A DNA stretch of 32,000 nt from an uncultured Erysipelotrichaceae bacterium (lineage in GTDB: Bacteria > Bacillota_I > Bacilli_A > Erysipelotrichales > Erysipelotrichaceae), in contig OW818653.1 of the NCBI GenBank assembly GCA_942492995.1, positions 840,001 to 872,000 of the forward strand. The letters are read 5' to 3'. Below the pieces are notes generated by a model. The model saw only the letters and a list, made by a program, of their open reading frames with translations. It made no database searches and was not told the origin of the DNA. Position numbers and translations under genes: made by a program. This document shows, piece by piece, positions 7,934 through 20,574 of this stretch; within the stretch, counting starts at the first letter, position 1, and each line of letters starts with the position of its first letter.

Positions 7934-10900
7934 CTAATTACCATTCTGGGTTACTTGAACTAAAATACTTGGATCTTTTAGTTTTGAATCTTCCGCTAGT
8001 AGAATAATTTTCGATAAGATTTCCGCACTTCTTGGATCTTCATCAATAAATGGTAAGAATAATCTTCCTCTATGACTAGAATGAACAGGAAGTATGTTTA
8101 AAGCGCCTGTCCCCATTTTATGCGCTACACCACTACCCAAATGGACTGTATATTCTCCATGAACACCATCTATAAATGCGTGCGACCCTTTTATCACTAC
8201 ATTCTTGAGTTTTAAAAGTAACAAGAGTTCATTTACAATTACTGATCTTATTTCTATCGTTGATAAGCTTGCTTCAGGGTCAACACCACCAACATGCGCA
8301 ACACTAACAACAAGATCTACATCACGCATTACTTCAGAGAAAACTAATTTTGGTACAGACTCGAGATCAACTATTTTACTTGTAAATCTATCTTCGAATC
8401 TAACAAGTTCAATTGTAGGAGATTCAATTTCCGAAGGAGAAAACCAATCTGCAATTGCATATATTGTTGCTACTAAATTTTCTTTATAGAAAACCTTTTG
8501 CAAACCTTCTTCATAATTAAGTATCCAACCTCTATTTTTTAATAATGCAATAGTCTTCTTTGGTTGTACTTGATGACCAGCATATCTTCTGGATTGATTT
8601 TTTTCAGTTAAATCATCATTATTCAAAACATAAAGTTCTCTATAAATCTGCTTGAATGGTTGAACCAACTTCTTAGTAAATACATGTTTCTGATACTCTG
8701 CCCAACAACCTAGCTCAAAAAGATGAACTGGATGTGCTAACATAACTTCTTCGTTATTTTCAAGTAAATATATTTCTCCAGAAAAATTAACTAATGTATT
8801 ATTTCTTAAAAATCCATTACCCTTGTTCGCAATAAAAACTAATTTTGAAATTATTGGAAACAAGACAGGATTACTTTGAAGGTTAATTAGCTCTTGTGAT
8901 TTAAATCTTTCACCCTTTTCCATTAATTCTTCAAAAATTGAACGAGCTCTTAAAAACTGATCGTTAAGTTCTTTCCGAATTGATGTCAATTGTTTAATAT
9001 ACTCATGTTTTTTATATTTATCTGGAATAACCTTTAACTCTTTATCATTCTTTCTTATCTTAATAGTAGTTTTTCCAAATTCATCAATACTAAGTTTTAA
9101 CTCAATATCGTCAATATAATAATTTTCTAAATAAGTACTTATTGAATCTAATTTAGCAGTCTCCATATCCCATATCATACGATTCACATCGGAATAACCA
9201 GCATTTCGTGCAAGATTTACGAGTGCTACTTGAACACTTCTACCTTCACTAGCACGTCTTTGTGCTCCAAACTGTTTACTTTCCTTAAGATATTGTTGAA
9301 TATATTCATATCTATTTAAGATATCCTTTTTATCAACTATTGGTATGATTCCATAAGCTAGTAAGTAGTCCTTATTCCGTTTTTCAACTATCCTATTCTT
9401 TACGGTTTCAATATCAAGTTTTCCTAATACTGCATCCGCAAAAAGCTGTGATCGTTTATGCAAGTTACCATCAGCTATATATTTTGCACTATTATAAATC
9501 ATCTTAAATCTCTTCTCACTAATACCCGCATATGCCTCTTTAAACCATATAGAATCAAATGCTCCATCTTTAAAATCTTGTGATGATATGGTTGAATATC
9601 TAGCAACTATTATTTCTTTTTCTTCGTTGAAAACACTATTTACATGTGAATGGAAATACCAACAAACAGATTTTAAACCTGGATCATTTAAATAATCCGC
9701 AATTATGTCTAACCATTGTGGAGCATACATTGCCGCTTCAATTAATTGCTTTTCACTAACTGTTCGATTACCAAATGCATTTTTTAAAGTTTCAACATTA
9801 TCTAACTTATTTGGATAACAACACTTTAATAGATAACTTAATACTTGGTTTTTAGTACTATTTCCATTGATGAAATTATACCCTCTAACATAAGAATCTT
9901 TCTCCGAATTTAATATAATAGTCGTAAAATTACGAACACCATAGCATCTTTTAATCATTGATGCTAAGTGAGTAACTTCAGTGTTTAACTCTCCACGTTT
10001 TGTTTCAATCTCTGTAAGAACATCGACTACATTGTCTCTAATTTTTTGAAGTTTACTATAGTTTGCATTCAGAGTATTTTGTCTTGGATTCGTACACAAT
10101 TGGATATTTTCAGCACTTAAAGGCCTAGAAATCATTTCTTTATAAACTTCAGTTTCTGTTATTAACCCTAATTCTAAAGCTCCCCCAAAATCTATAAGTG
10201 TTAATGTTGCATGGTTCAGATAGTCACACGCTTTATAATAATTATATGCTAAGGAGAAGTATTGACTAAATTGTTTAGCATCTTTGCATTTATTTGCCAT
10301 TAATCTTAACCAGTAGCTTACTACAAAACTTTCAATTGCTAAATTCTTAGAATTACCAACATAAAAACGATTATTTTTCATACATTCTTTTGTATGCTCA
10401 TCTTTTTCTAACTTCATAAAGATTTTAATTAATATTGAATATGAAAGATTAAACGCTTCAGTACTTGAAGAATTCATAACTAAGAATGTTATATACTCTC
10501 TAATTTTGTCTTTATACTTTAGATTACTAATAAATTTTTCATATGCCGTTATATCACTATAGTTCAAGTGTTTATTAATAAATACTTTATACCAATCAAG
10601 ATAGTTTGATTTAGCATTGAAACCATTAATTCTTATGTAAAAATCAAGATAGACTAATTCTTCATCTGTAATAGCGTTCTCTTTTACAAACTCTAAAACT
10701 TCATCGATAAATGGATAACTTGAAATCGTATGATTTCCAGCTTCTTTTAATTGGAGGAATGGTGTTCCTCCCAATGTTACTTTTGTTCTATTACCTAAAT
10801 AATTAATAACCTCATATTCATAATTTCTGTTTTCATGTATCAATTTATCAAATTCAGATAATATAAATTGAGTTCTATCACTATTTAAGATTTTATATGA

Positions 10901-12850
10901 ATCGACTTCAATATTATAAGAATCATTGAACGTTATATATTCGCTTTTAATTCCTACATCAAATAATTCTAATCCATTTTCAAGTTTCTTTGTATTTGAA
11001 ACGCCATTAATAATATCATTTGCGATAACTAATTCTCGTTGAGAAACTTCATCATTTTTATTGATTAATTTTCTCGAATTATTTCTAATACTTTCATAAG
11101 AATCATTTGATTCAATTACATTTATTAAATCTAGTGCTGCTAATCGTTTATTTTCATTATCACTTTCCATAAGCCGTTTTACTGATAAGTAAAGGTTATT
11201 GGAATTTTGCTTTAATAATAGATTTATACAGTTCTTTCTTAAATCTCCAGACTTATATTCTAGAAAATTCTCGATTTCAATATATTCATCTCTATCAATT
11301 TCAAAACTTGATAGAAGCTTAAATGCAGCATTCCTAACATTCACTACACGATCTCCACATAAATTAATTAATGTAGTTCTTTGTAACCCTTGACTCGGAA
11401 CCTTTAGAAAATGTTCAACAAGTAACACTCTATTTTGTGGACTCATACTATCTTTAATTTCAATTAAATAATCTACAACTTCGTTATCATAATCTAGATA
11501 GACTGACATCATCATTTTCTCAATTATTTCTGATACAGTAAGACTCATATTTATCCATGGAAAAACTATTTCATTAAAGACAATCTCTTTCTTTGGCATT
11601 AATTCTAAAACATTTTTTAATTTATAAAATAATTTCTTACCATAATCAACTTTATTGTAATTATAACTTTGTAGACGTTCACCATTGTTATGTTTCATGT
11701 CATATGTGTTCAAATTACCAAATAGATTTTTAATTACTAAAACTAATACATCTAAATCTATAACATCAATTGATTTACATGCTATACCATGTTTAAAAAT
11801 ATTGAACTGTGTATCATATAAAAATAATAAGCCACTTTGACGTTGATATTTTTTATCAGATTTCATCAGTGATTCTATTGGTTTTTTAACATCTTCAACT
11901 TCATCAAATGCAGTCGCCCATAATCCGATGTATATCTCTAGATTATCAATTGAGTTTAAACATGTGTCTAGATACTTCTTATCAGTAATACATTTGTATG
12001 CAGTTTCAAAACATCTTAAATTTACTTTATGCCTTTCCACATCTAGAATTAACCCTGTCCAAGTCGAAAATGCTCGAAGTATTGAAGAAAATCTTATTAA
12101 ATTATTATCTATGATACTTTTGAGTAAATAAACAAAGCTTTCTCTAGAGCATTCATCCATACATTCAACAATCGACTGTCTCAGTCCTTCTTGTAGTTTG
12201 GATGCTAATAGAAGATCATTAACCATTTTATAAGCTTTAACATTTTTACTCATTAATATTCCACGTATTATTTCACGCGTCAATACAGCAAAATTATTAT
12301 CATTATAAATGATATTTTTTATGTGATTAAATACAACTTCATTATCATTATTTAATTCAATAGCAATTAAGTCCGCTATAACAGATATATTTTCACTATC
12401 TTTTGTATTTGATGTTAAATAATTAACTAATGAAAAATTAGTAGCTAGAAGATATGTATATTCAGTCAATTTTTCTAAGTTTTTCGAAAAATATAAACTC
12501 GTAGATTTCTTAGTTCTATATGAACGCCTAACATAACCTGTTGTATAAGTGAAGTTTATTGATCTGTCCCAAATTCGTTTATAGACTAGTGCATTTTTGT
12601 CTCCCAGAATATATTTTAATGTCTTAAGATTATTATCTTCAAATACTTTGTGAACATGATTTGTAGTTCCTGTCCATAGAAATTTAAATAAGTTATTAAA
12701 CTTTAAATTACTTGAAGAATAATCTGCCAGAATATATTCTTTGATCGCAAATACTAGATTGTTGTTCACACCAAACGCAAAAAATTTATTAGATTCCACT
12801 CTATTTATATAATCTGATATTATTTTCTTTTGATTCGCGTTAATGTACAT
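7934..12850 (-). CDS. 1638-aa HEAT/ARM-like repeat protein with a DUF4132-type (possibly DUF5724/DUF4132) C-terminal region; function unknown
   Basis: Uninterrupted 4.9-kb ORF with GGGG SD. HEAT-like segments include VNVRNAAFKLLSSF and ENKRLAALDLINVIES. C-terminal motifs I associate with DUF4132 (YehH/YehI-type) proteins: AHPVHLFELGCWAEYQ...LVQPFKQIYRELY, MRDVDLVVSVAHVGGVDPEASLS and GRLFLPFIDEDP. I found no Walker A or other catalytic motif by eye. Confidence 0.75.
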   Translation of the reverse strand: MYINANQKKIISDYINRVESNKFFAFGVNNNLVFAIKEYILADYSSSNLKFNNLFKFLWTGTTNHVHKVFEDNNLKTLKYILGDKNALVYKRIWDRSINFTYTTGYVRRSYRTKKSTSLYFSKNLEKLTEYTYLLATNFSLVNYLTSNTKDSENISVIADLIAIELNNDNEVVFNHIKNIIYNDNNFAVLTREIIRGILMSKNVKAYKMVNDLLLASKLQEGLRQSIVECMDECSRESFVYLLKSIIDNNLIRFSSILRAFSTWTGLILDVERHKVNLRCFETAYKCITDKKYLDTCLNSIDNLEIYIGLWATAFDEVEDVKKPIESLMKSDKKYQRQSGLLFLYDTQFNIFKHGIACKSIDVIDLDVLVLVIKNLFGNLNTYDMKHNNGERLQSYNYNKVDYGKKLFYKLKNVLELMPKKEIVFNEIVFPWINMSLTVSEIIEKMMMSVYLDYDNEVVDYLIEIKDSMSPQNRVLLVEHFLKVPSQGLQRTTLINLCGDRVVNVRNAAFKLLSSFEIDRDEYIEIENFLEYKSGDLRKNCINLLLKQNSNNLYLSVKRLMESDNENKRLAALDLINVIESNDSYESIRNNSRKLINKNDEVSQRELVIANDIINGVSNTKKLENGLELFDVGIKSEYITFNDSYNIEVDSYKILNSDRTQFILSEFDKLIHENRNYEYEVINYLGNRTKVTLGGTPFLQLKEAGNHTISSYPFIDEVLEFVKENAITDEELVYLDFYIRINGFNAKSNYLDWYKVFINKHLNYSDITAYEKFISNLKYKDKIREYITFLVMNSSSTEAFNLSYSILIKIFMKLEKDEHTKECMKNNRFYVGNSKNLAIESFVVSYWLRLMANKCKDAKQFSQYFSLAYNYYKACDYLNHATLTLIDFGGALELGLITETEVYKEMISRPLSAENIQLCTNPRQNTLNANYSKLQKIRDNVVDVLTEIETKRGELNTEVTHLASMIKRCYGVRNFTTIILNSEKDSYVRGYNFINGNSTKNQVLSYLLKCCYPNKLDNVETLKNAFGNRTVSEKQLIEAAMYAPQWLDIIADYLNDPGLKSVCWYFHSHVNSVFNEEKEIIVARYSTISSQDFKDGAFDSIWFKEAYAGISEKRFKMIYNSAKYIADGNLHKRSQLFADAVLGKLDIETVKNRIVEKRNKDYLLAYGIIPIVDKKDILNRYEYIQQYLKESKQFGAQRRASEGRSVQVALVNLARNAGYSDVNRMIWDMETAKLDSISTYLENYYIDDIELKLSIDEFGKTTIKIRKNDKELKVIPDKYKKHEYIKQLTSIRKELNDQFLRARSIFEELMEKGERFKSQELINLQSNPVLFPIISKLVFIANKGNGFLRNNTLVNFSGEIYLLENNEEVMLAHPVHLFELGCWAEYQKHVFTKKLVQPFKQIYRELYVLNNDDLTEKNQSRRYAGHQVQPKKTIALLKNRGWILNYEEGLQKVFYKENLVATIYAIADWFSPSEIESPTIELVRFEDRFTSKIVDLESVPKLVFSEVMRDVDLVVSVAHVGGVDPEASLSTIEIRSVIVNELLLLLKLKNVVIKGSHAFIDGVHGEYTVHLGSGVAHKMGTGALNILPVHSSHRGRLFLPFIDEDPRSAEILSKIILLAEDSKLKDPSILVQVTQNGN

Positions 12851-12895
12851 TTTTTCCCCTTGTTAATGTTCACAATAAAACTTTGTAAATTCAAA

Positions 12896-13315
12896 CTACC
12901 ACAATCTTCCTGCAAGCATTGTTAATCTAATAAAAGTTAGAACATCTCCTTCTTTTAAATCTATTGTGTTATCTAACTCGCTTGTTTCTGTGTCATTTAT
13001 AAACACTCTGTAGATACCATCTTCATACGAAGTCAAAGCATTCTCAATCGCTTTATTTAATAATTGATTATCATGATTGTATCTTTCATTGAAAGAAACT
13101 TTTCCTAACACTATTTGCTCTTGAAGGGTTTCATTTGTTAAATAATGAAGTATTGTGTTTTCATTATTTTTTTCGTTGAATTGTATTACATTGTTTATTA
13201 CGATTTCTCGAATTAATTCACGTAAAGTTAATGGCATTGAATTTAATATAATTTCTTCATTTTCAATTTGATTCTTTCGTTTGTTAGCTTGTTTAACATT
13301 TACAGATAATTTCAT
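12896..13315 (-). CDS. 139-aa hypothetical protein, co-transcribed partner of the giant gene
   Basis: Preferred start is ATG 13313-13315 (MKLSVNVKQ...), with GGAGA 6 nt upstream. The ORF track extends to 13387 without an SD. The stop lies 45 nt upstream of the giant gene's ATG. No motif recognised. C-terminus: KEGDVLTFIRLTMLAGRLW. Confidence 0.6.
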   Translation of the reverse strand: MKLSVNVKQANKRKNQIENEEIILNSMPLTLRELIREIVINNVIQFNEKNNENTILHYLTNETLQEQIVLGKVSFNERYNHDNQLLNKAIENALTSYEDGIYRVFINDTETSELDNTIDLKEGDVLTFIRLTMLAGRLW

Positions 13316-13402
13316 GATTCTTCTCCATATATTTAAATTTAGTTCTTCACTTACTAATTCCAATTTTAATTTAAACATTTCTAACAAACATTAATTGTTC
13401 TT

Positions 13403-13432
13403 ATTATAACAAAACAAAATTTAAGAATTGTA
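13403..13432 (-). promoter_or_regulatory. putative extended -10 promoter of the small/giant operon
   Basis: The minus strand has TGTTATAAT (rc of 13403-13411), a TGn-extended -10. The -35 (TACAAT/ACAATT) is weak, at 17-18 nt. Confidence 0.3.
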
Positions 13433-13513
13433 GAAATAGTTAATCAATTCATTAATTTTGGATTAAATTATCGACTATCTATTTTTTTGATAATATTCAT
13501 TAGAATTTAGAAC

Positions 13514-13547
13514 AAAAAAAAGAGTATCCTAGTTCTCTAGAATACCC
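13514..13547 (-). terminator. intrinsic terminator after the RidA-family gene
   Basis: The minus strand has GGGTATTCTAG-AGAA-CTAGGATACTC (11-bp stem with two G-U pairs) followed by T8. Confidence 0.7.
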
Positions 13548-13609
13548 TTTCAATTTCTTCTAACTTTAAAAATTACACCAAATCACTTATGTGAATTCTT
13601 TGATACTGA

Positions 13610-13966
13610 TTAATCCTCTCTATATGCAATCGCATCAACTTGAAAGTCAATTCCATCGCGTATAAACTTAGTTTCATATGCCTTACGAGCCGGATACTTA
13701 CCATCAAATCTCTGTTTAATTATTTCACCTAAATACATCAAATCATTAATATCTTTAAATAAACAATCCATTTGAACCACTGATTGCAATGTCAAACCGA
13801 TCGATTCTAGTCTTTCGCTCAAAACATCAAATGCACCATTAATTTGGTTTTCGATTGATTGTCCTTCATTCTTCATACAATAGCTAATATAGACAAAATC
13901 TCCCGCTTCAACAATCGCGGAATGTGCCCATTTTTCGTCAATTTCTGTTCTTTTAATTTCTTTCAT
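13610..13966 (-). CDS. RidA/YjgF/UK114-family protein (reactive-intermediate deaminase family)
   Basis: 118-aa ORF. The pattern AIVEAGDFVYISY...IENQINGAFDVLSERLESIGLTLQSVVQMDCLFKDINDL...YPARKAYE...FQVDAIAY matches the family layout. SD AAGGGA. Confidence 0.7.
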   Translation of the reverse strand: MKEIKRTEIDEKWAHSAIVEAGDFVYISYCMKNEGQSIENQINGAFDVLSERLESIGLTLQSVVQMDCLFKDINDLMYLGEIIKQRFDGKYPARKAYETKFIRDGIDFQVDAIAYRED

Positions 13967-14049: not shown

Positions 14050-14904
14050 TTATTTATTCTCTTCTGGAGTATTAAAATATGCAACAGATGCGTTTATTTC
14101 GCCTCCCAATAGTAAGAACAAACAACTTAAATTTAACCAAACTAATAAAAGAATGATTCCACTAATACTGCCATATACATTGGCATAATTGGTAAAGTTA
14201 TTGACAAAGAATGAAAATAATAATGATATCGTAACCCAACCTACCATTGTAAAAATAGTGCCTGGTAAAATTTCTATAATTCTAACTTTTCTATATGGGA
14301 TTAACAGATATAAGATCGTAAATACAGCAGCCATCGTAATAAGTGGAACTAATAAGCGTATTAGATTCCAAACAATTTCAAATGAACTGGATATACTAAA
14401 CAGTTTAAAAACTTGTTCACCAATTACTTCACCGGACACTAAAAAGATAATAGTTATAAATAGAATTAGTGCTAGACCAATTGTAGAAATCAAATTCACA
14501 ACAATCACTTGCCATATATGTCTATCTTCAAATTTTCGATATGCTTTATATAGTCCTTTTCTTACAGCGTTTATACCACTTGATGAACTCAATATAGTTA
14601 CTACAGCACCGACTGTTAAAAGCGTCGCATTACGTGTACTTAGAACATTTTCAATAATAGTTCTTGTGACAATTGCGACATCAGTTGGGAAGAAACTAAA
14701 TACTAGATTCATTAATTGGGATTGAGGAATATTCGTGAAACTTAATAGACTAAATAAGAAGATGACAAAAGGAAATAAAGATAAGAAAAGAAAATATGAA
14801 CATTGCGCACTTAACCCAGCTATATCATCTTCTTTAAGACGAAATAACAGGTGTTTAATATATTTTTTTGCATAATCTTTAGTATTAACTAACGTTGGTT
14901 TCAT
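14050..14904 (-). CDS. YihY/BrkB-family (formerly 'ribonuclease BN-like') integral membrane protein
   Basis: 284-aa ORF with about 6 TM segments. N-terminal signature DIAGLSAQCSYFLFLSLFPFVIFL, and a C-terminal LLLVWLNLSCLFLLLGGEINA typical of the family. Confidence 0.75.
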   Translation of the reverse strand: MKPTLVNTKDYAKKYIKHLLFRLKEDDIAGLSAQCSYFLFLSLFPFVIFLFSLLSFTNIPQSQLMNLVFSFFPTDVAIVTRTIIENVLSTRNATLLTVGAVVTILSSSSGINAVRKGLYKAYRKFEDRHIWQVIVVNLISTIGLALILFITIIFLVSGEVIGEQVFKLFSISSSFEIVWNLIRLLVPLITMAAVFTILYLLIPYRKVRIIEILPGTIFTMVGWVTISLLFSFFVNNFTNYANVYGSISGIILLLVWLNLSCLFLLLGGEINASVAYFNTPEENK

Positions 14905-15025
14905 TTGAATCCCCTAGTTATTCTTGCTACATACTAATTTAAATTTCTAAGTCACTATTTCCACTAATATTTAATTGATTCTATATTTTGTAACAATAAA
15001 CTTATTGTTTTACTATACTCAGGAT

Positions 15026-16207
15026 TTAAAAAATATCATTACTATCATCAATATAGTTTTTTATTTTAGCACCATTAATACTTAACTTACTTTTATTACT
15101 TATTAAAGATAGGTAAAAACTCTTTACATCAGGATCATTTATTATCCACTTAATTTGATTGTTATTTACTGCTGCATTGTAAAGAATTTCTTTTTCACTA
15201 TTATTCCAATTTTGAATTTTGTTCAAATCACTAATTAACGTATGGGTATTTGCAAAACTCATACTATTTTCAAATGCAATTAAAAGTTTATCTTTAAGAT
15301 TTTCAACATTATTTTCAAAATTATTATCTTTAGATGTTTCATTTTTATTACTATAATGAATAGTTTCTAACTTTTCATTCAAATAAGTTCTTTCAATAAT
15401 CGTTTTTATTAAGCAATCAAGTTCACTACCCTTAGAATAGTCAGCAGGTGCAAAATATTTTATTCGATTATGCGACATCATTTTAAAGACTTTTTTCTTA
15501 TCTCTTGTACTTTGATTATATACACCTATTGAATGTCCGCCATAAATATTAACTAACTTCATACAAGGAATATCAGTATCACTATCACCTATATATATTA
15601 TATTTCGAAATGGAATTCTTAATTTATCTTCTGGAAAATAATCATTAACTGCAGGATCATTTACATCCAATACTCCCTTCTCTATTCTGAACAAAAATTG
15701 AGTTTTGTTTGTATAATTTACAACTTGAGCTGGCCATTGAGCAACACCTCGTTCATTAAAGTAAAATGAACTTGCATATATTTTCTCAAATGCTCCTTTT
15801 TTTGCAATTTCAGTGCCTTCAATCATTTCTTTTAGACCTGACGAGATTATATAATGCTCTATAATAACTCCATATTCATTACCATAATCATTAATTCTAT
15901 CAAACCACTCAAGCACTCCAGGAAAAAGCAAGACTTCAGATCCATATTTTGCTAATATATCCTTTGTAAACGGAAAACGGCCTTCGGACTCTTTAATCAT
16001 TTTATACATGTATGCTAGGTTTTGGTCCATTTCATTTTGTTCAGCTAATCCATTTGACTCAGTCCAAAAAGATTTAACGTCATACTTAACAGATTGAATA
16101 AATCCTTGTGCTTGCATATCATCTGGAGTAAGTGTTTTGTCAAAATCATAACATATCGCAATTACTGGTCTTTCCTCTTTATATTTTCTATTAAATTCTT
16201 TCCCCAC
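15026..16207 (-). CDS. HAD-superfamily phosphatase-like protein with a ~110-aa C-terminal extension of unknown function
   Basis: HAD motif I is DFDKTLT, motif II is IISSG, and motif IV is IGDSDTD. Preferred start is GTG 16205-16207, 9 nt after GAGGGAG. The ORF-track start is GTG 16223-16225. The gene is very AT-rich. Confidence 0.65.
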   Translation of the reverse strand: MGKEFNRKYKEERPVIAICYDFDKTLTPDDMQAQGFIQSVKYDVKSFWTESNGLAEQNEMDQNLAYMYKMIKESEGRFPFTKDILAKYGSEVLLFPGVLEWFDRINDYGNEYGVIIEHYIISSGLKEMIEGTEIAKKGAFEKIYASSFYFNERGVAQWPAQVVNYTNKTQFLFRIEKGVLDVNDPAVNDYFPEDKLRIPFRNIIYIGDSDTDIPCMKLVNIYGGHSIGVYNQSTRDKKKVFKMMSHNRIKYFAPADYSKGSELDCLIKTIIERTYLNEKLETIHYSNKNETSKDNNFENNVENLKDKLLIAFENSMSFANTHTLISDLNKIQNWNNSEKEILYNAAVNNNQIKWIINDPDVKSFYLSLISNKSKLSINGAKIKNYIDDSNDIF

Positions 16208-16365
16208 AATCTTAGTCTCCCTCACTTTATTTAATTAAATAATAATTGACCATTTAAGTAGTGTAAAGAAAATAAATTAATATTATTTGATACAAACTCA
16301 GTTCTTGAATGACTTTATAAATGTATTAGTTTTAGATTAAAAATTTATAAGCAAATACTTTACTT

Positions 16366-17244
16366 TTAAATTTTATTTCTTGAACCAAAATTAAAAATCT
16401 GTGCCATTGTCGCTCTTAATACTTGATAACAAATTAGTGCTGTATTTTTATCTGGAAAAAATTGTGAACTCATTTGCTGATATGGATGAATGTAATTTCT
16501 AAAATCTCTAACTACATGACTAAATTTACTTACATCATCACTTACAACTCCTAATTCTTTTGATACATCTATAAAATTACTCAGTGTCCACTCACTAAGT
16601 TTTTTAACTTTTAAATCGCGATCTTTTGGTGCTGTTATGGCCTTATTAAAAAGTGAGGGATTTTTTATAGCAAAACCTAAGAAAAGACCTTCCATAATAC
16701 TTCCGATTAGTAGAATTGAAGCTAATGGTGCTTCACTTGAAAAACATTTTTCAGACTCTATAAGACGTTTTTCTAAAACATTAGAGATAGCTGAATCAAA
16801 ACAAAGATCTTCAATTTTTATTTCAAATTTAGTTGCAAGAAACTCTTTTTCTGTTACATCTCTTTTATTTTCTGGATTATCTATAATTACTTTCTCTAAT
16901 CGTTTAAATAAAATTTCATCATTATTTCTTTCAACTTTCCATTTATCGAAGACCATATATTTATTGAATTCTTCAATCAAATTATCTAGGTAATCGATTC
17001 TAGAAATATAATTAATCACTTCGAAAACTTTCCTAATACATTTATCTAATTCAGGTTTACCATTAATTTCTTTAAGCTTTGTTTCAGTATAAAACCATCT
17101 CGATGGAAACCCTTTACCATATACATCTTGAAAACCAAGCATATTAAAAAAGGCAATCAGTTTTGGACCTGAACGATAATCCGGTGTTCCATCACCATTA
17201 ATTATATCTCTTAATTTTTCTAAAGTTTTTTCACTCAAAATCAT
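16366..17244 (-). CDS. hypothetical protein, candidate AbiJ-like architecture (N-terminal domain plus C-terminal HEPN-like domain)
   Basis: 292-aa ORF. The C-terminal half has SILLIGSIMEGLFLGFA followed by HVVRDFRNYIHPYQQ (R-x6-H / RN..H, resembling the HEPN Rx4-6H motif). The N-terminal ~120 aa was not recognised with confidence. AT-rich, with its own 326-nt upstream spacer. Confidence 0.4.
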   Translation of the reverse strand: MILSEKTLEKLRDIINGDGTPDYRSGPKLIAFFNMLGFQDVYGKGFPSRWFYTETKLKEINGKPELDKCIRKVFEVINYISRIDYLDNLIEEFNKYMVFDKWKVERNNDEILFKRLEKVIIDNPENKRDVTEKEFLATKFEIKIEDLCFDSAISNVLEKRLIESEKCFSSEAPLASILLIGSIMEGLFLGFAIKNPSLFNKAITAPKDRDLKVKKLSEWTLSNFIDVSKELGVVSDDVSKFSHVVRDFRNYIHPYQQMSSQFFPDKNTALICYQVLRATMAQIFNFGSRNKI

Positions 17245-17570
17245 AAATAAATTACCTCATTTTACTAATTTTAAAAGTAATTATACTATACAAATCTTTT
17301 TTATAATTTAGTTAAAAACAACATTTAAATGATTTACGTGGTATTTTTTTGCTTTCGAATTAATAACCCTTATGGCAAAACAAGTATTTTGAGTTAAATC
17401 TAATGACTTACATATTTTTTATTTTTATATCTTTATAATATTACTTAGACTTTTCTCAATTATTCCAAGAATTATTGATTTCTAATAATCGCGTATAATT
17501 ACATTTCTTATAAACATTACAAGCTTTTGTTCTTACAAAGTTTTACTTAGCATTCTATTTTGATTTATCT

Positions 17571-18872
17571 TCATTTATAATATTTTGTTCTTATAAAATT
17601 TGCAACATTATCAATCTCAGGAAATAATGATGATTGGTTGATCCCTAGTAAATTAAGTTCGCTGAGAATTTGTTGTTTTGAATTTGATGGAATAATAAAA
17701 TGTAACTTAACTCCATTTTTCTTAACCTGAAATTTAGATAATTCGTGCACATTACTTTCAACAATATTATTATAATTTACATTATCATTAAAAACGTGTA
17801 AACCATTAACTAAAAACACTCCATCTTGCCTAATAATTCTTTCATTTTTTCGAGTAGGGACAACAAAATATGTTTTTTGCAAATCTTTTGGATTAATGCT
17901 ACATTCAAAATCACCAGTAACTTTTCTTATTTCATGAATAAGTTTCTTTACAATCAGCGTTGAATTAAAATAATCTACATCTATGTTACCTTTTTCATTA
18001 GCTATTATTAATTTATGTATTTCTTCCTTTTCATTCATTCTCAAACCTGCAATTGCACACAAGATTTCGATCGTATCACTATTTGCTTTTTTAACATTTT
18101 CAGTTTTGGGAGAATAAATCAATACTTCACCATCTTTTCTTTCATTACTACTACAAGCAAAATATAAAGCTACTAACAGATTTGTTGTTGCATCTAATAA
18201 TCTTGTAGGTAACCCATAATGTTGCATAATTTGAAGAATCTCAAGATGACTATTAACATTTTGAAATTCAAATGGTTTCTTAGTAGTTAATTCATGATGC
18301 ATTGTGTCTTCGCTTTTGTAATAGTTTTCATTTCTAAATATACTTGCTACCGTGTTATATTCGATTCTTGAATTTCCTCTCAAAAATAAGTTATTGAACT
18401 CAAATTCTTTTAAATTATTATTTAAGAATTTATCAAATTCATTCTTAAATTCATCAAAATTATTTACTTCTATTTTATTTTTATGCCATCCACTTGATCT
18501 AGATCTATTAGTTTGATCTTGATTTACTAATAAAAAATCAGATAGTTGACTTTCATATTTCGAAATATCAATCTCAAAATTTTTATAACTTGATATTTGA
18601 TTTGATAAAAAATCATTCTTGATACTTTTTAATCCAGACAACATCATATTTACTGTATTTATAACTTGAACATTATTTTTCTTATTTATTATATAAGTTT
18701 TCTCACTGCCCTTTTTACCTATTTTTTCAATATTATACTCTTCATTCCATGTAAAATATTTGGATATTTCAAAATCTTCTTCCTTAGAACTGAAGTTATA
18801 TTCCAAGTCATCTAAACATAATATCCCCTTTACTTGAAGCTTAATTCTAGAATCTCTTATTATTTTATCCAT
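17571..18872 (-). CDS. FRG-domain protein
   Basis: Central motifs LFLRGNS (the eponymous F/Y-R-G) and QHYGLPTRLLDATTNLLVALYFA match the FRG domain (PF08867) as I remember it. Preferred start is ATG 18870-18872, 4 nt after GGGGG. The ORF track starts at TTG 18900-18902. Confidence 0.7.
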   Translation of the reverse strand: MDKIIRDSRIKLQVKGILCLDDLEYNFSSKEEDFEISKYFTWNEEYNIEKIGKKGSEKTYIINKKNNVQVINTVNMMLSGLKSIKNDFLSNQISSYKNFEIDISKYESQLSDFLLVNQDQTNRSRSSGWHKNKIEVNNFDEFKNEFDKFLNNNLKEFEFNNLFLRGNSRIEYNTVASIFRNENYYKSEDTMHHELTTKKPFEFQNVNSHLEILQIMQHYGLPTRLLDATTNLLVALYFACSSNERKDGEVLIYSPKTENVKKANSDTIEILCAIAGLRMNEKEEIHKLIIANEKGNIDVDYFNSTLIVKKLIHEIRKVTGDFECSINPKDLQKTYFVVPTRKNERIIRQDGVFLVNGLHVFNDNVNYNNIVESNVHELSKFQVKKNGVKLHFIIPSNSKQQILSELNLLGINQSSLFPEIDNVANFIRTKYYK

Positions 18873-18999
18873 TAATCCCCCTTTGAATTTTTTAATTCTC
18901 AATTTGATACATTTTAGATAAATTATAATTTAAATAAATTAAATAGAATATAAAAATATCGATAAATAAGAGAAAATTATTTGATTATCGGCAATACAT

Positions 19000-19034
19000 A
19001 AAAAAAACTAGAAAACTTTAATGTTATTCTAGTT
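19000..19034 (-). terminator. intrinsic terminator after guaA
   Basis: The minus strand has AACTAGAA (rc of 19027-19034), a 13-nt loop, then TTCTAGTT followed by a T-run (rc of the A7 at 19001-19007). Confidence 0.7.
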
Positions 19035-19041
19035 ATTCTTT

Positions 19042-20574
19042 CTATTCCCACTCTATTGTTGAAGGCGGTTTAGAAGTCACATCGAACAGGATACGATTAA
19101 CTCCCTTGATTTCATTTACGATACGATTTGATATTCTATCCAATACTTCATACGGAATCTTAGCGTAATCTGCAGTCATGCCATCGATTGAAGTAACTGC
19201 ACGAATACCCAACGCATAATCATATGTACGTTGATCGCCCATTACACCAACAGATTGAATGTTGGTTAGTACGGTAAAGTACTGCCATATTTCTCTGTTT
19301 AAACCAGCTTTTTTGATTTCTTCATGAAGAATGGTATCACTCTTCTGAACAATGTGTAACTTCTCTTCAGTCACTGCCCCAATGATACGAATGGCTAAGC
19401 CAGGTCCTGGGAATGGTTGACGTTGGACCATTTCTTCACTTAACCCAAGAAGTAAGCCTAATTGTCTAACTTCATCCTTGAATAACATGTTTAATGGTTC
19501 AATTAACTTAAAGTGCATATCTTTAGGAAGTCCACCAACATTATGATGTGACTTAATAGTATGTGCAGTTTTCGTGCCGGATTCGATGATATCTGTATAT
19601 AGTGTACCTTGAGCTAAGAATGAAATATGACTTAGCTTTTTAGATTCGGATTCAAATACACGAATGAATTCTTCCCCAATAATTTTACGCTTCTTCTCAG
19701 GATCAGAAACGTCGGCTAATTTAGATAAGAAACGTTCTTTCGCATCAATCTTAATAAGATTAATTTTGAAATGATCTTCAAACGTTAATTTAACTTGTTC
19801 AGCTTCATTTTCTCTAAGTAGACCATGATCCACAAACATACAAGTTAGTTTATTACCAATAGCTTTATGTAGAAGTGCCGCCACAACCGATGAATCGACG
19901 CCACCAGATAGAGCACATAGTACTTCTTGACCTTGTGTTACATCTTGAATTTGTTTAACTTGTAAATCGATAAAGTCTTCTAACTTCCAGTTATCTTTTG
20001 CACCACATACTTTGAACACAAAGTTATGTAGCCAAGCTTGACCATAAACACTGTGTTTTACTTCTGGATGGAACTGTACACCATAAAGTTTCTTTTCGGC
20101 ATTACTCATAACCGCTAGAACACCAGATTCACTGAGTGCATCTTTGGTGAAACCTGTAGGAACTTGACTGACTTCATCACCATGACTCATCCATACCGCT
20201 TGTACTTCAGGTAAGGTATCACACAATAAATTAGGATGTTTCAAATGAATATCGGATTTACCATATTCACGAATCTTTCCAGACTTCACTTCACCACCCA
20301 ATTGATGTGCCATCAACTGCATGCCATAACAGATACCAAGTACTGGTAAACCTAATTCATATATCTTAGGATCAACTAATAATGCGTTCTCTTCATAAAC
20401 AGAATTAGGACCACCAGAGAAGACAATCCCTTTTATCTCAGGATCATTCTTATAGAAGTCTAAATCCGTATCATGCGCCTTTAATTCACTAAATACACCC
20501 ATTTCACGAATACGTCGTGCAATAAGTTGGTTATATTGACTTCCGAAATCGAGTACTACTATTTTATCAGCCAC
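19042..20574 (-). CDS. guaA: GMP synthase (glutamine-hydrolysing)
   Basis: 510 aa. N-terminal class-I amidotransferase ([29 protein letters not shown]). ATP-pyrophosphatase P-loop SGGVDSSV. C-terminus [11 protein letters not shown] start (rc of 20572-20574) overlaps the guaB stop by 8 nt. Confidence 0.97.

Follow-up and report, generated by a model that had tools for sequence, protein, structure and literature searches.

The window analysed here is a 32,000-nt stretch of contig OW818653.1 from an uncultured Erysipelotrichaceae bacterium, and it carries, beside the GMP synthase gene guaA, three consecutive intact open reading frames (ORFs) that we interpret as a small accessory islet of candidate anti-phage genes. 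All of the genes concerned lie on the minus strand. guaA (19042–20574) is the conserved left boundary gene, and a gene for a YihY/BrkB-family membrane protein (14050–14904; PF03631, E = 2.3e-60), hereafter yihY, is the conserved right boundary gene; between them, in guaA-to-yihY order, lie gene C (17571–18872, 433 aa), gene B (16366–17244, 292 aa) and gene A (15026–16207, 393 aa). A preliminary description of this DNA had reported the three ORFs, and they are present where it placed them, although the starts of A and C had to be corrected. The ORF of C reaches 18902 and that of A reaches 16225; because of their ribosome-binding sites and their database copies, the starts were placed at, and would most likely be, the ATG at 18872 for C (ribosome-binding site AAAGGGGG; 433 aa, the same as database protein P0001) and the GTG at 16207 for A (ribosome-binding site GAGGGAG; 393 aa, P0241). 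The long AT-rich spacers of about 120, 140 and 326 nt reported earlier measure 121 nt (A–yihY), 140 nt (B–A, or 158 nt with the corrected start of A) and 326 nt (C–B), and their G+C content is 16–24%.

How might this segment have come to lie beside guaA? Relatives of the GuaA protein of the window were sought by a scan of one genome per species. In two Erysipelotrichaceae metagenome-assembled genomes, L002 and L003, whose GuaA proteins are 89% identical to that of the window, guaA is followed directly by a yihY/brkB homologue and there is no islet. The L003 homologue is 83% identical to that at 14050–14904, and in L002 the start of yihY is visible; synteny on the upstream side, comprising guaB and the genes at 21.8–28.3 kb, is kept in both. 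Nucleotide homology with L003 stops at 19040, at the guaA stop codon, and restarts at 14922, 18 nt ahead of the start codon (ATG) of yihY. The guaA–yihY spacers of L003 (193 nt) and L002 (about 340 nt) are unrelated and have a terminator of their own. A third relative, the 3-kb contig L001, opens with the last codons of guaA, continues with C and A, and has no B; it holds the nearest relatives of A (82% identical) and of C (67% identical). Three states of the site are thus known: empty, C+A and C+B+A. This is a presence/absence polymorphism at the guaA flank, for which the preliminary description had proposed to look, and its view of a horizontally acquired accessory patch is borne out by the absence of the segment from L002 and L003 and its reduced form in L001.

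Three features mark the borders of the segment. First, guaA terminates in GAGTGGGAATA followed by the final G of its TAG stop codon, and this 11-mer is the published att core: the terminal 12-mer GAGTGGGAATAG (19042–19053, minus strand), which is attL-like, contains the core exactly at 19043–19053. In Firmicutes, the 3′ end of guaA is known as a target of integration (PMC4844618; PMC4701971), the 11-bp GAGTGGGAATA is the guaA 3′-end att core of Tn6647/Tn5801-type elements (bioRxiv 10.64898/2026.03.26.714560), and the same core has been reported for GIflu-1 in Vibrio (PMC13418153). Second, the A–yihY spacer contains an attR-like, degenerate copy of the guaA terminus, TAGTGGAAATAG (14955–14966, minus strand), that agrees with the guaA-terminal 12-mer at 10 of 12 positions and with the published core at 9 of 11. 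Matches of this grade are expected by chance about 1.7 times per window on both strands, and about 0.003 times in the 121-nt spacer on this strand. Third, the window has exactly two copies of a perfect 12-nt direct repeat, AAGAATAACTAG, one at 19029–19040 and one at 14914–14925 (both on the minus strand), and both are located at the breakpoints of homology with L003. In the guaA terminator, the left copy also serves as the 5′ arm of the stem; the right copy lies immediately upstream of the ribosome-binding site of yihY, 29 nt from the degenerate att copy. The chance that two random AT-rich 60-mers of the window share a run of at least 12 nt is 0.0018. The earlier statements that the patch had no flanking direct repeat and that its mode of insertion was unclear consequently fall, since the islet sits on a known guaA 3′-end att core and has repeats at both edges. 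The accompanying statement that there is no integrase or transposase stands within the window: neither the islet nor the rest of the window contains an integrase, transposase, tRNA or conjugation gene, and gene B by itself is not flanked by a repeat. Most economically, the islet would be an integrase-less remnant at the guaA att site, or else a cassette that was mobilised in trans. It shares with the Tn5801/Tn6647-like elements and GIflu-1 the same guaA target with an identical GAGTGGGAATA, and a degenerate copy and a repeat lie at its distal junction; but it is only 4.1 kb long and has no integrase, conjugation or resistance genes. It is therefore not a member of the Tn5801/Tn6647 group, and at most a remnant or a mobilisable cassette.

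The intrinsic terminator of guaA (19000–19040, minus strand), a hairpin followed by U8 with a folding energy of −10.9 kcal/mol (z = −3.0), insulates the islet from guaA transcription. A similar hairpin of the CTAG...CTAG–T-run type, with another stem sequence, is found at L001:30-75 (compare 18985–19041 of the window). Because AAGAATAACTAG forms an arm of the terminator stem and the stem differs in L001, the islet may have brought its own terminator for guaA. Within the islet, a scan for sigma-70 promoters gave no excess over shuffled sequence (35 versus 37.9 sites), a terminator scan of the spacers found none, no significant hairpin appeared when the stretches following C, B and A were folded, and the spacers contain neither an Rfam family nor any meaningful tandem repeat. 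From the length of the spacers and the independent distribution of the gene families described below, we infer that C, B and A are transcribed separately.

The base composition of the islet differs from that of its neighbours. The G+C content and the G+C content at third codon positions (GC3) are 28.2% and 18% for A, 27.8% and 14% for B, and 25.2% and 17% for C, compared with 37.1% and 27% for guaA and 41.3% and 26% for guaB; the mean G+C content of the window is 32.2%. The contrast with guaA and guaB noted previously is thus real (25–28% versus 37–41%), but it is milder than hand counts on single lines had indicated. Low G+C content spans approximately 8.5–19.0 kb, beyond the islet, and takes in the conserved yihY (29.8%). 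We considered the whole low-GC block of 8.5–19 kb as a single island and rejected this, as yihY, inside the block, adjoins guaA in the relatives too. The relatives are far more GC-rich (42% overall in L003), and the GC3 of guaA is 41% in L003 versus 27% in the window; the source lineage has therefore undergone a strong drift towards AT, which makes raw G+C content a weaker marker of foreign DNA in this genome.

Gene A encodes a HAD-type phosphatase core; the domain of about 100 aa at its C-terminus is poorly conserved. The protein matches PF12710 with 36 bits (cutoff 27) and, end to end, the PADLOC model PDC-S34 (PDLC05001; E = 2.9e-189; aa 9–390, model positions 3–380 of 384), and the HAD motifs DFDKT, SSGLKE, KTQF and GDSDTD are intact, all being at least 95% conserved among 120 homologues. 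PDC-S34 was defined by embedding in BREX, DISARM or type I restriction-modification loci (Payne et al. 2024). The surroundings of A homologues, for which we considered 135 immediate neighbours at 85 metagenomic and viral loci, independently reproduce this logic at the level of the family, not of the window copy: the neighbours include about 19 type I specificity subunits (HsdS) and 8–11 HsdR-type proteins, together with shufflon-type integrases, PLD nucleases, Schlafen proteins, AbiEii-like ATPases and TIR proteins. HAD enzymes have precedents in defence. Chp dephosphorylates ATP, dATP and IMP (PMC12715507); the HAD subunit of PUA-Cal-HAD turns dATP into dADP; MisB of Metis clears the trigger nucleotide m6dAMP and sets the activation threshold; and DS-9 pairs a HAD with a metallophosphatase. 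By analogy, gene A would dephosphorylate nucleotides. It resembles Chp (CARF-HAD), PUA-Cal-HAD, MisB and DS-9B in its HAD catalytic core, which acts on nucleotides in those proteins and keeps all of its motifs in A. Those enzymes are, however, of the HAD_2 type (PF13419 is stated for MisB) and work either with a partner protein or with a CARF or transmembrane module fused to them, whereas A, judging by these descriptions, is set apart as a stand-alone PF12710/HAD-IB-like protein with a C-terminal domain of its own.

Gene B combines an AbiJ-type N-terminal domain (aa 1–115) with a DUF4145-like HEPN helical domain (aa 150–290), and its AlphaFold2 model (mean confidence score, pLDDT, 89.9) comprises two domains. 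The family is large (2,262 matches) and about 60% identical throughout. The motif R246-DFRNYI-H253, an Rx6H motif, is invariant in 54 aligned sequences of the family, as is R249. For the HEPN-like protein of the preliminary description, an architecture of this kind, an AbiJ-type N-terminal domain plus a DUF4145-type HEPN domain, had already been described (PMC3710099). DUF4145 is a HEPN family (PMC3710099) and has been shown to supply the catalytic RNase of RAZR/PD-T7-4, an abortive-infection protein (PMC13017515); it is matched by 24 of 54 close homologues of B, with a best E-value of 5e-6. The list of Foldseek matches in the Protein Data Bank (PDB) is dominated by the HEPN toxins 7AE9, 7AE6 and 7AE8 together with 2HSB (TM score 0.70, normalised to the target), 1UFB, 2Q00 and AbiV, all at weak E-values.

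The N-terminal domain of B matches the N-terminus of the PADLOC Stk2 model (E = 2.9e-12), and an exhaustive search with aa 1–120 placed the domain in 443 representative clusters. When its fusion partners were typed on 52 diverse matches, it headed AbiJ-type HEPN proteins in 24 of the 52 by Pfam Abi_C and in 32 by PADLOC AbiJ; it also heads a full-length Stk2 kinase (E = 1e-189) and occurs on TIR, SpbK and ThsB-like proteins, on DpnII, Mrr and PLD nucleases, and on Ymh and DUF4145 HEPN proteins. Pfam AbiJ_NTD3 matches six of these 52 relatives. AbiJ N-terminal domains (AbiJ-NTD) have been proposed as phage sensors that gate a toxic effector (Anantharaman et al. 2013; PMC3710099), and a fusion of AbiJ-NTD1 with DUF4145 has been described (PMC3710099). 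As far as domain matches can tell, the fan-out of the B domain agrees with what Anantharaman et al. 2013 described for AbiJ-NTD. B shares with lactococcal AbiJ the two-part plan and the AbiJ-type N-terminal domain, but its HEPN domain is DUF4145-like, and there is no match to Abi_C (PF14355) or to PADLOC AbiJ at E ≤ 0.1. With RAZR/PD-T7-4 it shares the format of a single protein with a C-terminal DUF4145-like HEPN domain carrying Arg and His, which are essential in RAZR; the HEPN toxin 7AE6, used as the reference structure in the RAZR paper (PMC13017515), is, like 7AE9, among the top Foldseek matches of B. Unlike RAZR, the N-terminus of which is a Cys4 zinc ribbon, B has an AbiJ/Stk2-type N-terminus and matches neither a zinc finger nor PD-T7-4, and, whereas ring or portal assemblies of phages activate RAZR (PMC13017515), nothing points to such a trigger for B. 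Because it has no Abi_C domain and no zinc finger, B is AbiJ-like in design and is not a member of AbiJ or RAZR. A B homologue, P0233, is translationally coupled within a restriction-modification-like operon in the order SNF2 helicase, DUF4391, B, N6/N4 methylase, RhuM, ResIII/restriction endonuclease, GmrSD. This seven-gene operon is conserved in loci L174-L181 (e.g., L174:2099-12891), where start and stop codons overlap or abut; in the L176 variant, the half with the methylase and endonuclease is swapped for Vsr, a BanI/DpnII-like restriction endonuclease and another SNF2 protein.

Gene C consists of a winged-helix-like N-terminal domain (aa 1–90), a low-confidence linker (aa 92–158) and an FRG core (aa 160–430); its AlphaFold2 model (pLDDT 78.5) has a confident alpha/beta core. 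It matches Pfam FRG (PF08867) with 65 bits (cutoff 25), the PADLOC model PDC-S15 (PDLC04936) with E = 3e-76 over aa 146–441, that is, across the FRG core, and phrog_4962 with E = 3e-45. The invariant residues are R165, G166, R180, E188, Q217, H218, Y219, D227, S265, D266, N343, R345 and Q349, and the YRG motif (R165, G166) is invariant in the family. Most of the 3,588 homologues of C span its C-terminal 62–69% only, and the N-terminal 140 aa are common to only a handful of close relatives; the N-terminal ~140 aa are therefore a variable module. A Foldseek search with the model matched the winged-helix part alone, weakly, and sequence searches of the PDB with the single proteins and with profiles gave nothing for A, B or C. 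The preliminary description had called the FRG domain functionally uncharacterised. This remains so experimentally, but a computational assignment puts FRG in the ADP-ribosyltransferase superfamily and makes it a probable effector with NADase activity (PMC9503650). Homologues of the FRG core are carried by 352 plasmids, of which 258 are conjugative, and on one lactococcal plasmid the FRG gene lies near ToxN/AbiQ.

We also observed FRG genes in other settings. In loci L182-L189 and L196-L198, which belong to two unrelated gut lineages, an FRG gene is a lone insert in polysaccharide/dTDP-sugar biosynthesis loci, and one such gene adjoins an AAA_14/DUF4143 ATPase and a 151-aa ORF without matches. 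P0020, a 383-aa match to the FRG family, also carries ABC/SMC-type ATPase domains in precomputed annotation (AAA_23, AAA_15, SMC_N), which suggests an FRG domain fused to, or miscalled with, an OLD/Gabija-like ATPase.

Do the three genes belong together? We applied hidden Markov models of A, B and C within 10 kb of homologues at 92 loci. None of the 85 A-homologue loci contained B or C, and none of the seven B-homologue loci contained A or C; a scan of viral contigs yielded seven relatives of B and five of A, none with a partner gene, and no relatives of C. The adjacency of C and A in L001 reflects shared descent and not co-selection, because L001 is a close relative with the genes at the same site. 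Judged by their distribution, A, B and C appear to be three independent single-gene modules and not one system. PDC-S34 and PDC-S15 are themselves single-gene candidates, which agrees with this independent distribution. The genes had been taken at the outset for separate units with the flavour of conflict systems, and the independent spread of the families, with homologues of A and B inside restriction-modification operons, bears this out; homologues of A and B do lie near defence genes, and at the 92 loci the three families never occur together. It had further been said that none of the proteins forms a named defence system: A and C do belong to named candidates, PDC-S34 and PDC-S15.

We favour the following explanation and give it a probability of roughly 60%. 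An accessory islet of 4.1 kb without an integrase, at positions ~14923–19039 of the window, would have inserted into the canonical att site at the 3′ terminus of guaA, a hotspot used by Tn5801/Tn6647-type integrative elements, and its cargo would be three independently evolving single-gene candidate modules of abortive infection, in each of which a variable domain resembling a sensor appears to be joined to a conserved effector enzyme. Upon activation, the FRG domain of C, a predicted NADase of the ADP-ribosyltransferase superfamily, would deplete or convert NAD+; the HEPN RNase of B would cleave RNA and halt translation, as the DUF4145 protein RAZR does; and the HAD of A would dephosphorylate nucleotides, as do other defence-associated HAD enzymes. 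Direct support comes from the presence/absence polymorphism, the att-like repeats, the family memberships, the intact motifs, the independent distribution and, for A and B, the embedding of homologues in restriction-modification loci. That C, B or A protects against phages, and what their substrates and triggers would be, we infer from these observations. On this explanation, the islet is a fairly ordinary small defence island, the families of which have all been catalogued or described already: A and C are known as PADLOC candidates, and the architecture of B was described computationally in 2013.

Several observations weigh against this explanation. The distal att copy is degenerate (9/11) and the integrase is absent, so that site-specific integration is the presumed mode. 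The window contains no known defence system near the islet, and none of C, B and A lies in a restriction-modification system here; the window copies of the PDC-S34 and PDC-S15 genes differ from the described ones in that they occupy an att-site islet and not a restriction-modification, BREX or DISARM locus. B falls below the Pfam cutoff for DUF4145 (PF13643; 19.2 bits, cutoff 23.1, E = 1.3e-3), and the E-values of its Foldseek matches are all weak, at least 0.38. A is about 65% identical across thousands of homologues, which is unusually conserved for a defence gene, and three chromosomal contexts of C homologues consist of housekeeping, polysaccharide or vitamin B6 genes, not defence genes. 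The PADLOC PDC families are described as untested candidates (Payne et al. 2024), and the papers searched report no phage test for any of the three families.

Some of these points would equally fit genes that are accessory without being defensive, either ordinary cargo, such as a metabolic HAD and a winged-helix regulator, or selfish, toxin-like stabilisers of the islet. The conservation of A is that of a metabolic enzyme, NCBIfam assigns it to HAD-IB only, and below the cutoff, homologues of C lie among polysaccharide and vitamin B6 genes, and no experimental data are reported for the three families. We nevertheless regard this alternative as unlikely, since homologues of A are strongly embedded in type I restriction-modification loci, homologues of B lie within a restriction-modification-like operon, the N-terminal domain of B is common to AbiJ, Stk2, SpbK and ThsB-like proteins, and A and C give very strong matches to the full-length candidate models of PADLOC.

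It is an unlikely extension of the favoured explanation that the guaA att site might be a cassette-exchange hotspot, at which short, integrase-less defence cassettes are acquired and exchanged step by step (empty to C+A to C+B+A), presumably mobilised in trans by integrases of the Tn5801/Tn6647 family, and that the B family might be a widespread, unnamed abortive-infection RNase embedded in restriction-modification loci (AbiJ-type N-terminal domain plus DUF4145-like HEPN; over 2,000 clusters that are about 60% identical) that is missing from defence catalogues.

Could the segment instead be ancestral, so that deletions would explain both the empty sites of L002 and L003 and the absence of B from L001? 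Only three comparison loci are available, and the two 12-nt repeats could recombine and so remove the segment. Such a deletion would, however, leave a spacer of about 25 nt, whereas the spacers of L003 (193 nt) and L002 (~340 nt) are far from this and unrelated. The GC3 of A, B and C (14–18%) is also well below that of the flanking core genes, the junction coincides with a known att core and has a degenerate distal copy, and each family is patchy across phyla and on plasmids. We consider ancestry with repeated loss quite improbable. As for a single cooperating three-gene system, in which, for example, the FRG enzyme would generate an NAD-derived signal that the HAD phosphatase processes or removes, with the HEPN RNase as effector, we rejected it as very improbable: the genes are adjacent and co-oriented without recognisable terminators between them, C and A are adjacent also in L001, the nearest relative, and MisB of Metis offers a precedent for a signal-clearing HAD, but 0 of 92 A- or B-homologue loci carry a partner family within 10 kb, the spacers are long (140–326 nt), shared descent accounts for the L001 pair, where B is dispensable, and homologues of A and B occur in quite different operon contexts.

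The guaA site provides a natural experiment in which close relatives carry zero, two or three candidate anti-phage genes at one att site. It offers compact single-gene material (0.9–1.3 kb) that bears on FRG as an NAD+-consuming effector, on whether a stand-alone HAD phosphatase can by itself defend a cell, and on the AbiJ-type N-terminal domain as a portable phage sensor driving a DUF4145 RNase. It also connects the guaA hotspot, more usually associated with elements that carry resistance genes, with small defence islets. The locus adds instances and testable material, and current ideas are not overturned by it.

Two further features of the window lie outside the islet. Synteny with L003 is wholly lost past yihY, and a second low-GC block, absent from L003, lies downstream of yihY at 7934–13966, with 26–33% G+C per gene. 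It encodes a 1,638-aa protein with DUF5724, DUF4132 and DUF7737 (E = 0 to DUF5724), a 163-aa protein without an assignable family and a RidA/L-PSP-like protein of 118 aa. At 772–2187, a phosphotransferase system (PTS) EIIBC gene is seemingly split: the ORF at 1645–2187 corresponds to EIIB, and the ORF at 772–1608, 36 nt away from it, matches only positions 110–319 of the EIIC profile, which suggests a frameshift, a pseudogene or a sequencing error.

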